Positions 6,985 through 62,552 of a stretch of 64,000 nt of DNA are shown here, piece after piece. The notes below the pieces were generated by a model. It saw only the letters and a list, made by a program, of their open reading frames with translations. It was not told the DNA's origin and made no database searches. A program made the position numbers and the translations under genes. Position 1 is the stretch's first letter, and each line of letters opens with the position of its first letter. Origin of the DNA: Eledone cirrhosa (Eukaryota); the NCBI GenBank assembly GCA_964016885.1, contig OZ024749.1:37448001-37512000 (forward strand), read 5' to 3'.

Positions 6985-7803
6985 ATAAATTGAAACAAAA
7001 TGAAAACGAAATTTCATTTCTCACTCTTAGTATGGCACTTACTTAAATGTAAGTATGCATGTATACGTACATACATATATGTATACAGACGTACAGTAGC
7101 ATGCACATATATATATATATATATATATATATATATATATATATATATATATATATATATATATTATATATATATACACATACATATGCATACAGGTACA
7201 CATACATATATGCACGTATCAGTTTAGCGGCGCTTATTATAACGTCGCTTTGTTCGTTTGTAAACAAACTGAACAGCCTGAATTTATGCCATACGGTGTT
7301 AAGGCAACCACGTCACCTTTTTGTTCAACACTGACACAGGAACGATGTACTAGTTTCAAGCTTGTTAGCTATCATCAGCACCGTTTACCCATCTGCCAGA
7401 TAGTTGAACGTTCGAAAGTATATACTTTCCTTATGAAAATTAACGGCTGAGCAGCCTAATTTGAATATTGAGTGAGTTAAATCGGCCAGGCATACCGAAA
7501 ACGATAAATTGAAACAAAATGAAAACGAAATTTCATTTCTCACTCTTAACATGGCACTTACTTAAATGTAAGTATGCATGTATACGTACATGGTTGCCTT
7601 AACACCGTATGGCATAAATTCAGGCTGTTCAGTTTGTTTACAAACGAACAAAGCGACGTTATAATAAGCGCCGCTAAACTGATACGTGCATATATGTATG
7701 TGTACCTGTATGCATATGTATGTGTATATATATATATATATATGTGCATGCTACTGTACGTCTGTATACATATATGTATGTACGTATACATGCATACTTA
7801 CAT
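6985..7803 (-). mobile_element. Non-coding hammerhead element: ~520-nt monomer, partial tandem copy and inverted arm
   Basis: 6985-7503 monomer; 7504-7591 repeats its first ~88 nt; 7592-7803 is an inverted copy of 7047-7309; flanked by (TA)n; family fragment at 57411-57465. Confidence 0.85.
7341..7385 (-). ncRNA. Minimal type I hammerhead ribozyme
   Basis: Minus strand reads AACGGUG-CUGAUGA-U-AGCU-AACA-AGCU-U-GAAA-C-UA-GUA/CAUCGUU: 7-bp stem I, full core, 4-bp stem II, palindromic mini stem III, GUA cleavage triplet. Confidence 0.88.
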
Positions 7804-9224
7804 ATATATATATACATATATATATATACATATATGTATATATATATACATATATATATATACATATATATATATATATATATCTATATATATATGTATA
7901 CATATATATATATATATGTATATATATAAATATATGTATATATATGAATATATATATATATATATATGTATATATATATATATATATATATATATATATA
8001 TGTATATATATATATATATATGTATATATATATACATATATATATATATATGTATATATATATATATATGTATATATATATACATATATATATATGTATA
8101 TATATATATATATGTATATATATATATATATGTATATATATATATATATGTATATATATATACATATATATATATATGTATATATATATACATATATATA
8201 TATGTATATATATATATATATGTATATATATATATGTATATATATGTATATATATATGTATATATATATATATATATGTATATATATATATGAATATATA
8301 TATATATATATATATATATATACATCCACAAATACACATATTGACAAATGGTCTCACACACTCATATATATCTACAAACATACACACATAAATATACATA
8401 TACATAAATATACATATGGGTGTATGTTTGTCGTTGTGTGAGTGTCTGTGGATATGCGTGCGAGCTTGTGAATATGTGAGTTTGTTGGTGTATGTGTATA
8501 AGTATGGGTGTGTGTGTATGTGTGAGTTTGTAAGGGTATGTGTATATTTATGGGTGTGTTTGTTGGTCTGTGTGTGGGTTTGTGTATGTATTTGTCAATA
8601 TATATGTCTAGGTGTTTGTAGGTGTATATGCATATTTATGGCTGTGACTCTGTGGGAGTGTCTGTGTGTGTACGTACTTGTCAATATCTGTGTGTAAGTA
8701 TATATGGTATATTTATGTTTGTGTGGGTGTGTTTGTGCATATCTGTGTGTCTGTTAATGGTGGGTGAATACAAAGTATGCGTTTGAGAATGGTAATTGTT
8801 TTCTTATTTTGTTTTGTTTCTTTACATGTTTTGCTTTCTGTTTTTGCTGTTGTATATATTATGTTCCAAAAAGTTTTAGTAAAGATAACCAATATTAACA
8901 GATGTCAGATATTTTTTATTGGTAGTCTTGTCATTTTTCACATAACTGAGCGAGCGCAGCTTCTGTGTCTTGGACTCATGTAATGTTTCGTTTGGGATTT
9001 ATGAATTTGTATTGCGTTGTATCGCCATCATAAACGTAGCTAGAAGGCTTCCCCTGTTACCACACTAAATAGTTAGGAATATTTATTCTAGGATTATGCT
9101 TAAGACATATCATACGACTTGGAATTATCTACGTACACATTAACACACACTTGCATATATATATAAACACATATATATGAGCGGACAAAATGTCTGGTAG
9201 AGAATGTTGAGAAGCCAGAGGGGA

Positions 9225-9800
9225 TTAATTATGTAGGCGGGAAGTCGCTGGATTTCGTTGAGGACTTCCTGTATTTGGGAGCAAAGATTGGGAATACGGA
9301 AGATAATGTGGTTGAGAAGAAGAGCAAGACCTGGGCGGCGTGCCACATTATGAGATCGGTGTGGAAGTCGGACCTTCGTATAGACCTGAAGATCCGTCTC
9401 TTCATTGCTGTAGTGGAGTCTGTTCTGCTGTACGGGTCTGAGACTTGGACACTGACAAAGAAACTCACTCAGATGGGTGCTACACGAGAATGCTGAGGAT
9501 GGCTCTGAACATTAATCAGTATACACTGAGGATGAAAGACTCAGAGCTGTATGGGAGCCTCCCAAAAGTCAGCTCAAAAGGGACACAGAGGAGACCGAGG
9601 TTAGCTGGACATGCTCACCGACATCCAGAGTTGACACTGCACTTGGAAGACCAAGGTTAACGTATGTTGATGCCCTAATGACAGACACCGGTTTTGTTGG
9701 AGACGCAGGACATGGCAGCGATAATGAGGGACAGAGACCGCTGGAGAGAACTCGTCCATGGATCTCGGGCATTTTACCCGCCCTAGATAGATAAATAGAT
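9225..9800 (+). mobile_element. RTE-like LINE 3' fragment (C-terminal RT region, frameshifted) with (TAGA)n tail
   Basis: DFLYLGAKI...KIRLFIAVVESVLLYGSETWTLTKK...DGCYTRMLRMALNI...RLAGHAHRHPE, then TAGATAGATAAATAGA. Confidence 0.85.
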
Positions 9801-10774
9801 ATGAACAGATATTGTGGATAAACGCATATACATTAACGTACAGCAAACACACTCACCAACATACTCACATATATATGCACACTTATTCATAGGTGCATAG
9901 ACAGACATAAGCATAGGTGAATGTATGCACACTTATAAGCACATGCAGGAACATACAAAGCACACATACATATAACATTCTATATTTACACACAGAAACA
10001 CATACCTGCACTTTCAACTCACTCGAAAACACATAAATACACATACACAATCTCGTATATAAACACACACATACATACACATAAACAGGCACACAAAAAA
10101 AACCATCCACATAAACATACAGAAACACATGCACTCACACATACATATAAAAGCAAACACATGCATAGACATGTATACACACACATAGACATAAATACAA
10201 ACACATGCTTACACGCACATTAACACAAACATGTATACATACACATAAACAGTTACCCACGCACATATACAAACATACACATATAAACACAAATATAAAC
10301 ACACATATATAAACACACACATATAAAAACATATACACACATATAATGATATACATATAAACATACACCCACATACACAGAAATTCAATTAAAAAACAAC
10401 TCCACAAACATTTACCCACTTCAATGTAAAAGATAGATTATTTAGATTATTATTATTATTATTATTATTATTATTTTTATTTAGTTGTTGTTAAGAAATT
10501 GTTGTTGTTCTTGTTGTTGCTGTATTGTTTTATTTCTATAATTTATTGCAGCAAACTCTTTTAACTAACACGCGACAGATTGTTCATTTAACACGAGACT
10601 TGTGATCATTTCTATGGCTTCAACAGCAACAATAACAGCAACAACAACATAATAAATAATATCAATAATAACAACAACGGCATCAATAACGACAACAATA
10701 ATAATAATATCAATAACGACAAGAGTAATAACAACAACAATAACAATAGTGTTGATGATGAAAACAATGCTTTC

Positions 10775-61527: not shown

Positions 61528-61990
61528 GTAATGGTGGTGGTGGTAGTGGTGGTGGTGGTGGAGGTGATGATTTTGGTGGTGGTGGTGGTGGTGGTGACAA
61601 TGACGATTTTACGGATGGCATTATTGATGACAATATTGATGATGATGATGATGATGATGATGACGATGCTGATACGTCTGTTGTTAGTGCTGCAGCTGAT
61701 GATGATGATGATGATGATGATGATGATGATGATGATGATGATGATGATGGTGGTGGCGGTGGCATTGACGATGGCAGTGATGATGGTGTTAATGATGATA
61801 ATCTTGATGATAATGATAATGATACTGAGGAAGATATCAATGATGGCGATCATATAGATGATGATGATGACGATGATGATGATGATGATGATGACGAAGA
61901 TGATGATGATGATGATGATGATGATGATGACGACGACGATGACGATGATGATGATGATGATGATGATGATGATGATGATGAAGATGAGTA
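61528..61990. repeat. (GAT/GGT)n trinucleotide low-complexity tract
   Basis: Direct inspection. Confidence 0.93.
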
Positions 61991-62410
61991 CAATAACGTT
62001 AATTACAATGTGGCTATATTATAATGGCGTGCGTTCACGTCTGTAATGACTCCATGTCAGTAGACCGTTCAGTACTAAAAGCTGTGTTGGAATCTCGCCC
62101 GTCCCACGATCGATTCCAATATCCACTTATTGATTAATTCGATTACTTACTTCACTATCAACAACAGCTTATTTACTTGTTTAACATGTAGTATTTCTGA
62201 CACTATATCTGTCTGTCTATCGAATCTTCCATTAAGTCTATTCGTTCATCGATATGTCAAAGAGCCTTGCTCCCTCTCTTCCACCCGTCTATCTCTCTCT
62301 CAATGCACACACACACACACACACACACACACACACACACACACACACACACACACACACATATATATATATATATATACACACACACACACACATATAT
62401 ATATATATAT

Positions 62411-62552
62411 TTAGGAAAAGAGTCAGGACCCCGATGGTTGAGCTCCGGCCGTTTCGACAGCTAGATCCTATTACCCATTCTACTACCCTAAGTATCAAGT
62501 ACACTGATACGTCAGGGTCCACCTGGTTCCTTACCACGCTTTTCCATGTTTT
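62411..62552 (+). mobile_element. Family H2 element, copy 5 (opposite orientation, one arm largely deleted)
   Basis: GACCCCGATGGTTGAGCTCCGGCCGTTTCGAC then CCTATTACCCATTCTACTACCCTAAGTA...GGTCCACCTGGTTCCTTACCAC. Confidence 0.8.

Follow-up and report, generated by a model that had tools for sequence, protein, structure and literature searches.

Short fold-back sequences of six families recur in a 64-kb stretch of the Eledone cirrhosa genome (contig OZ024749.1 of assembly GCA_964016885.1, positions 37,448,001 to 37,512,000; hereafter the window, whose own numbering is used below). Five of these families are pieces of the pseudo-long terminal repeats (pLTRs) of protein-coding Penelope-like elements (PLEs). 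They probably arose when reverse transcription on one RNA was primed from the two nicked strands of a (TA)n target, the sixth family being a non-coding repeat that a similar enzyme probably inserted. The initial annotation had read them as Penelope-mobilised, retrozyme-like hammerhead mini-elements or as stereotyped snap-back products. Its link to Penelope, the targeting of (TA)n, the abundance and the stereotypy of the hairpins were all borne out, whereas the character of retrozyme-like mini-elements holds only for E1 (6985-7803) and not for H2, H3, H4, H5 and F27. The names H2 to H5 are kept from that annotation, and F27 denotes the family at 27455-28004.

The described families were found at all 12 places given for them. 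Genome-wide counts were taken from the 3.0-Gb assembly as exact matches and are hence lower bounds: at least 19,505 for the H2 tail, 15,631 for short H2 hairpins, 11,509 for E1, 11,061 for the H4 hammerhead, 8,915 for F27, 6,021 for H5 and 251 for H3, with 23,291 exact matches to the E1 tail. In agreement with the proposed (TA)n flanks, the 3' ends of the arms pass into TA-type repeat in 96 of 112 H4 and 65 of 92 H5 arms. The pairing of an inverted with a sense arm was recovered as a self-inverted BLAST match at 9 of the 12 places and was missing at 41474, a lone tailed arm, at 62411, and at 44380, a decayed copy (no such match at E ≤ 1e-4). Simple repeat makes up 25% of the window, and microsatellites swamped whole-window Rfam and repeat scans.

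H2, H4, H5 and F27 each lead into a long PLE open reading frame (ORF) and H3 lies behind ORF remnants, and we therefore regard all five as pLTR pieces; the linkage to ORFs that had been put forward as a check is thus present for the first four. The H4 parent has a 758-aa open frame beginning within its tail, and the H5 parent has two frames (476 and 775 aa) in the copy examined, with Pfam matches to RVT_1 (E 2.9e-6) and GIY-YIG (E 3.3e-6) and no relative found in the PDB. For H2, 7 of 30 loci chosen by tail alone extend into a common upstream sequence, at least 3 of them being longer-armed hairpins, and these longer copies lead to a 3.57-kb tandem unit with a 593-aa ORF, a Hydra-type PLE. Another F27 copy shares its locus with an 827-aa ORF, and at 4 of 20 H3 loci remnants of a PLE ORF stand ~340-430 nt ahead of the H3 sequence. 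The only Pfam match of the H4 parent is GIY-YIG (E 0.019); the H2 and F27 parent proteins gave no Pfam match and are 41-50% identical to the H4 protein, with motifs common to all.

An ORF with reverse transcriptase (RT) and C-terminal GIY-YIG endonuclease (EN) regions, as in EN+ PLEs, is present in the H2, H4, H5 and F27 parents, and pLTRs, partial tandems, an inverted 5'-truncated copy and an optional tail were also found. By motif, H2, H4 and F27 would belong to the Hydra clade: DKT, an RWK-like motif, a CxCX5C linker, CxxC/CxH around the EN end and a (TA)n target were recognized by eye, the RWK position not being seen in the printed H2 frames and reading RWR in H4 and F27. The C-terminal GIY-YIG, DKT, CxCX5C and (TA)n target, as well as the inverted 5'-truncated copy and the tail, agree with the account of this clade in the available portion of Craig et al. 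(2021; PMC8557442). The present elements depart from that account in three respects: (i) the canonical hammerhead, there called universal in Hydra, is present in H4 and F27 and lacking in H2 (two full-length copies); (ii) the tails measure 60-130 nt, against 30-40; and (iii) start-to-tail hairpins occur here in the tens of thousands, and that portion of the paper describes neither a hotspot of 5' ends nor a rule of one tail per hairpin. The H5 parent, placed by its motifs, resembles Neptune/Nematis-type PLEs in its DKG and CX2-5CxxC motifs, RVT_1, GIY-YIG, minimal hammerhead and TA target, and is unlike them in the two frames of the copy examined. The window holds one longer PLE insertion together with short copies of the five families, as follows.

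12110..17202, minus strand: 5'-truncated Hydra-type PLE, the tailed arm, with ORF, long 3' untranslated region and pLTR with hammerhead (core 12439, predicted start site 12446, tail 12110-12243)
15700..17202, minus strand: ORF remnant of this PLE (500 aa, 17202-15703), with RT C-terminal half, CxCX5C linker and GIY-YIG-like region
17210..18119, plus strand: tail-less inverted arm of the same insertion, hammerhead core 17924
27458..28001, plus strand: F27 hairpin with hammerhead core at 27663 and a long helix II; the tail-less arm spans 27458-27659 and the tailed arm 27660-28001
26824..27016, minus strand: H2 hairpin, tail 26824-26903, arms 26904-27016, a start-to-tail piece without CUGANGA
55729..55892, minus strand: H2 hairpin with shortened arms
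58465..58652, minus strand: H2 hairpin
58673..58879, minus strand: H2 hairpin of a different subfamily
62411..62552, plus strand: diverged H2, tail-less inverted arm fused straight to a bare tail
28022..28250, minus strand: H3 hairpin, older family with a CUGAAUGA core variant, arms 28119-28245, tail on the low side
44380..44585, minus strand: H3-like decayed copy, assigned by eye, with no self-inverted or H3 BLAST match
28353..28560, plus strand: H4 hairpin with arms at 28353-28490, a hammerhead core at 28430 and a tail reaching ~28560
41474..41605, plus strand: single tailed H4 arm, beginning at +4, no partner arm
41031..41410, plus strand: H5 hairpin, hammerhead (41179, minus) in the tail-less arm

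The ORF remnant of the window PLE shares 41-46% identity with the H2 and H4 parent proteins and has no Pfam match. Its inverted arm is 99.3% identical over 809 nt to 12244-13050, and the F27 hairpin is 89-92% identical to its pLTR. The tailed arm of the H5 hairpin (41255) lacks ~44 nt spanning the hammerhead, and a similar skip occurs beside another copy (L354). As a separate observation, the otherwise unalignable tails of H2, H4 and F27 share the motif ACTCT ... ATTGAGT(A/T)C(C/T)TT, a candidate RT-binding signal.

A strict type-I hammerhead descriptor with a palindromic helix III found seven sites in the window, compared with a mean of 0.015 (maximum 1) in 200 shuffles; they lie at 7378, 12439, 27332 and 41179 on the minus strand and at 17924, 27663 and 28202 on the plus strand. 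The H4 hammerhead, a full core by eye, escaped this descriptor because the palindrome of its helix III is imperfect. Minimal type-I hammerheads are thus present in the pLTRs of H3, H4, H5 and F27, and the earlier claim of a full or half core in every family stands for these and for E1, and fails for H2, where CUGANGA is absent even from the full-length parents. The H2 "half core" is not a truncated ribozyme: no CUGANGA precedes GAAA in the long H2 copies or in two full-length parents, and CTGANGA occurs within 34 nt upstream at only 41 sites genome-wide, which are of mixed origin; a degenerate hammerhead relic at the equivalent place in H2 is possible. Two related ideas were rejected: that H2 folds back within helix II of a hammerhead, since its parents have no 5' core, and that the H2 5' end is a hammerhead cut site, the corresponding pattern having given 6 unrelated matches. 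Because H2, the most hairpin-rich family counted, has no core, the hammerhead is not what makes the hairpins. Rfam searches with 17 stretches returned HH9 on E1 as the sole match (E 0.32, at 18.5 bits where the gathering cut-off is 52); the other 16 stretches had no hammerhead match, and no family passed the gathering cut-off. When the hammerheads were folded as single strands, z ranged inconsistently between +0.5 and -2.1, and H3 alone fell below -2.

The hairpin fragments are not random truncations. Their arms end on the 3' side at two preferred offsets, 46 (36 arms) and 115 (27 arms) among 112 H4 arms, and 56 (31 arms) and 117 (28 arms) among 92 H5 arms. Exactly one arm carries a tail in 103 of 107 head-to-head pairs, neither does in 4 and both do in none; by family, one-tail pairs make up 44/44 in H2, 28/29 in H4, 9/9 in H5, 8/9 in F27 and 14/16 in E1. 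The arms of a pair agree at subfamily sites in 124 of 131 cases in H2 (0.52 in shuffles) and 54 of 55 in H4 (0.61 in shuffles), both above all 2000 shuffles. At one locus (L296, G000:C1:21871500-21881499), two full-length H5 elements form an 8.7-kb palindrome with a single tail; its arms are 99.93% identical over 4321 nt, compared with 97.3% to another copy, and they meet only a few bases from where the hammerhead is predicted to cut.

We propose that each nicked (TA)n strand would prime RT at one of two fixed sites on a single RNA; one cDNA would carry the tail and the other would not, both would share alleles and each would stop independently, and the two would be joined head to head by end joining. 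In L1 twin priming, one RNA is likewise the template for primers from both target strands, and microhomology joins the cDNAs into an inversion; there the cDNAs copy different segments, whereas here one segment would be copied from two fixed sites, giving a palindrome. The available text on the lizard PLE PAc, an Anolis Poseidon element (Frangieh et al. 2024, PMC11167929), reports that in vitro both strands are nicked and extended, that RT starts at two sites bounding the tail, that uncleaved RNA is the main template and that the tail is near the ORF start; the correspondence of two sites to two arms, and the inversion, are suggested here only.

A different route to an inverted arm is self-priming, in which a single cDNA or an antisense RNA turns back on itself at a set position and serves as template for the inverted arm, with later central deletions creating the asymmetry. 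Self-priming on an antisense template was earlier proposed for a rotifer Penelope from palindromes at inverted junctions (PMC3846280, consulted in part), and it would suit arms that are near-identical and have alleles in common, as well as the many loops of only 0-6 nt. However, copying would have to halt precisely at the tail boundary almost every time. Among the 89 one-tail pairs of H2, H4, H5 and F27, the tail-less arm is the longer in 25 (by ~260-300 nt in L185 and L209), the tailed arm in 54 and neither in 10. The tail-less arm also holds sequence absent from the tailed arm at more than 700 H2 sites (501 and 725 in slightly overlapping windows), a pattern that later deletion could mimic, and in long insertions such as 12110-18119 the unequal arms lie kilobases apart. 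The simple snap-back that had been offered as one source of the hairpins therefore fits poorly, and we consider self-priming unlikely.

The 5' ends of the arms are also concentrated, falling within -5..+6 of one site in 38/52 H2, 50/114 H4, 40/82 H5 (scored with a downstream anchor) and 15/43 F27 arms (after dropping 4 arms joined to short interspersed elements, SINEs). In the same order of families, 0, 9, 0 and 5 ends fall in -59..-6, and 14, 50, 19 and 12 arms reach at least 60 nt beyond the hotspot; in H5, 23 of the 82 ends stop downstream of it. A TATA box is found at -29..-33 in 3/7 H2, 3/3 H4 and 2/3 H5 parents, and CCAAT at -57..-93 in 16 of 17 parents covering all four families; the two occur jointly at 0.04% of background positions. 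Under twin priming, the cDNAs would mostly end at this predicted transcription start, which would be the RNA 5' end. We infer this equation of the pile-up with the RNA 5' end, as well as the double copying of a single RNA and the end joining of the junctions. A minor cluster of H5 5' ends near the hammerhead cut site (8/82 within -5..+8, including the 8.7-kb palindrome) hints that some templates are cleaved. Joints of SINEs to F27 at +1 were considered as template jumps and rejected, as F27 resumes upstream in 3 of 4, which identifies them as SINE insertions into an ATT target.

With twin priming correct, the pile-up of 5' ends could still be attributed to an RT stop or an RNA processing site (structure, U-run or poly(A) cleavage). 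The lack of a TATA box in F27, AATAAA ~14 nt upstream in F27 and in some H2 parents, and a T-run just upstream of the H4 hotspot point in this direction, and the minor H5 cluster indicates that processing can set 5' ends. Against it stand the equal TATA spacing in three families, CCAAT in four, a full-length H4 copy (L146) that also begins at the hotspot, and the promoter of Drosophila virilis Penelope, which is located in the pLTR according to the part of PMC2377424 consulted. We hold such a stop or processing site to be quite improbable as the cause.

With twin priming from a start-site RNA, both priming sites would occur twice on the PLE RNA, once close behind its 5' end and once at its 3' end; short hairpins would result where the 5'-proximal sites were used, and long insertions such as 12110-18119 where the distal ones were. 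Short hairpins, lacking the promoter, would be dead-end by-products. A reading in line with the initial annotation would instead make them self-propagating non-autonomous hammerhead elements with the hairpin RNA as template, which is partly true of E1 and would accommodate 15,631 H2 hairpins of near-constant size and some recurring junction sequences. However, most junctions are unique (36/44 distinct in H2 and 28/29 in H4) and the recurring ones cross subfamilies, every family grades into long copies and ORF-bearing parents, the promoter is absent from the short forms, and H2 has no ribozyme core, which leaves self-propagation very improbable for the short hairpins. The junctions show microhomologies and templated inserts, and many loops are of 0-6 nt; an extra, cap-derived G was seen in few copies, could not be told from microhomology and was excluded from the counts. 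In reads of two runs, head-to-tail joints of the H4 hammerhead recur every 78 nt (28424-28493) as a minor form, possibly a miniature retrozyme born from a PLE pLTR.

Palindromes adjoining microsatellites are difficult to assemble, and the hairpins might in principle be assembly or library fold-back artefacts, as the initial annotation had cautioned. Their arms, however, differ by 1-13% with a tail on only one, and their junctions are locus-specific. Strand-switch joints of E1 recur at identical places in 3/3 raw-read runs, and raw reads traverse the H2 loop in 2/2 runs, both at the level of the family and not as proof for the window copies. We give the artefact explanation almost no credence.

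E1 is probably a retrozyme, likely mobilised by a PLE. It is a non-coding tandem unit of 470-540 nt, with no ORF seen, one type-I hammerhead per unit and a frequent inverted arm, whereas the H2, H3, H4, H5 and F27 hairpins, being pieces of ORF-bearing PLEs, lack the ORF-independent tandem non-coding units of retrozymes. Its window copy comprises the following parts.

6985..7591, minus strand: E1 tailed arm, made up of part of one unit and one complete unit with a promoter-like region, a hammerhead, an internal (TA)n and a tail that ends at 6985-6988
7341..7385, minus strand: type-I hammerhead with CUGAUGA at 7378 and the palindrome CUAG as helix III, cleavage being predicted after 7348
7418..7467, minus strand: octamer-like box 7467-7456 (one change in the window copy) and TATA-like box 7425-7418
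7588..7803, plus strand: E1 tail-less inverted arm

Among 63 tails, a sample of the 23,291 exact tail matches, 31 end in TA, another 31 lead straight to a further unit, one passes into other DNA, and none runs into an ORF. Since E1 bears the insertion signature of PLEs (tail, inverted arm and TA target), it was likely inserted by a PLE-type enzyme. The hammerhead core is more conserved than the rest of the unit (0.989 against 0.914, P about 0.03), N7 and loop II being free, in keeping with the conservation check suggested at the outset. Its ~48 distinct 5' ends, hand-counted after dropping duplicates, ends in the internal TA run and four block-boundary artefacts, are scattered over the unit with at most 2 per position and no hotspot. 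Units within three arrays mostly show 0-3 differences per 290 nt, against a mean difference of 9.7% between arrays. Scattered ends and near-identical units would fit a multimeric or circular RNA template having no fixed 5' end. A short tailed 3' piece of E1 also lies at 57398-57465.

The octamer-like box of E1 stands 42 nt ahead of the TATA box, and similar boxes stand 46-47 nt apart in three U6 upstream regions of this genome; the U1 upstream regions examined in this genome have no such arrangement. Aligned locally, E1 and the U6 upstream regions match only weakly, since between 13 and 75 of 500 shuffles did as well, and the apparent resemblance of the boxes is a weak lead. Newt satellite 2 (cited in PMC2220036, consulted in part) is likewise a tandem hammerhead repeat with an internal promoter of the small nuclear RNA (snRNA) type, and differs from E1 in that the E1 boxes seem, on the same weak statistics, nearer to the U6 than to the U1 upstream regions of this genome. 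Tandem arrays of U6 and U1 snRNA genes were seen at G000:C19:31.78-31.84 Mb, at C2:169.4 and 181.0 Mb and on C1128. Taking the hairpins and E1 together, we tentatively suggest that the hairpins may record PLE integration with strong-stop-like cDNAs of a capped RNA 5' end, and that the same enzyme may roll round the circular RNA of a retrozyme with a U6-type promoter to yield tandem arrays; this fuller picture is possible but falls somewhat short of an even chance.

Several points weigh against twin priming as the source of the five families and against insertion of E1 by a similar enzyme. With regard to sampling, exact-match patterns are biased to young copies, the H4, H5, F27 and E1 samples were drawn mostly from the start of contig C1, and the majority of H2 loci were chosen by queries containing the tail, which biases them to at least one tail. 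With regard to the arms, a later central deletion could lengthen either one, and later arm-to-arm conversion could yield the concordance of alleles, which in H5 (58/65, 9 pairs) and F27 (24/24, 8 pairs) does not exceed the best shuffle. A collision of the two cDNAs predicted an excess of tailed arms ending at the second priming site, which was not found (501 against 725 H2 sites), and simultaneous occupancy of the sites is therefore not supported. The start site was predicted from motifs (TATA, CCAAT and Inr patterns) that were picked out once the hotspot was known. A similar pile-up would result from a strong RT stop, and none of the 4 F27 parents has a TATA box at -40..-22, AATAAA lying ~14 nt upstream of the F27 hotspot. 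Finally, in an older E1 array the units differ by 13-23 of 290 nt, evenly spread.

The hairpins are a variant of known PLE and retrozyme biology and no new class. Published work already covers the inverted pLTRs, the tails, the targeting of TA and a link between retrozymes and PLEs. E1 resembles the non-LTR retrozymes (Cervera and de la Pena 2020, PMC7229834; Li et al. 2026, bioRxiv 10.64898/2026.07.22.740005; both consulted in part) in being non-coding and tandem, with one type-I hammerhead per unit and PLEs alongside. It is unlike them in its longer unit (470-540 against about 170-400 nt), in its dimer-type hammerhead with palindromic helix III, and in its PLE tail, inverted arm and TA target; the word "tail" does not occur in the text of the latter paper. 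Minimal dimer-type hammerheads have already been described (PMC4209133, in the part seen). PLEs have been named as candidate mobilisers of animal retrozymes (PMC7229834), and a PLE origin of retrozymes has been proposed (bioRxiv 10.64898/2026.07.22.740005). In a literature search of limited coverage, we found no account of the one-tail rule, of start-site hairpins or of a retrozyme with PLE tail and inversion, and files S1/S2 of Craig et al. (2021) may list the families.

The available part of the same paper (PMC8557442) names the origin of the tandem and inverted structures of PLEs as an open problem. To this, the one-tail rule, the arms of common template and the pile-up at the start site contribute a specific model that can be tested in the existing in vitro PLE system. 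E1 adds the anatomy of insertion sites to a so-far distributional and phylogenetic case for PLE-mobilised animal retrozymes. The model also bears on annotation, since palindromes that score in this genome, by the tens of thousands, as microRNA-like or like miniature inverted-repeat transposable elements would be by-products of PLEs.

Other repeats and genes were noted in the window. A further PLE-type pLTR family at 35444-36076 has a hammerhead core at 35545 (minus) with a TATATA helix III and is adjoined by a palindrome of related sequence at 35890-36076; in four pattern-picked genome copies (L032, L039, L047 and L050) it stands head-to-head with an H2 arm, and these joints are possibly two-template insertions. 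Hammerhead-like cores of other families lie at 27332, 56203 and 59076 (minus) and at 63387 and about 62985 (plus), of which 27332 passes the strict descriptor. An abundant SINE-like family (29-231, 2725-3409, 10763-11307, 36080-36145, 40535-40874 and 54411-55035), which in part carries tandem 3' repeats of 68-69 nt, also inserts into F27 and H5 at ATT sites, and 3' end fragments resembling long interspersed elements are present at 9167-9799 and 37723-38086 (DUF6451 match). The stretch near 32110-32310 consists of 200 N. Tandem arrays occupy 19618-23029, 51202-52953 and 18795-19484, with periods of about 74-83, 51 and 141 nt. An exon of a C2H2 zinc-finger gene was identified at 29628-30266 (plus strand; Pfam zf-C2H2), presumably resembling a Zic/Gli-type C-terminus.

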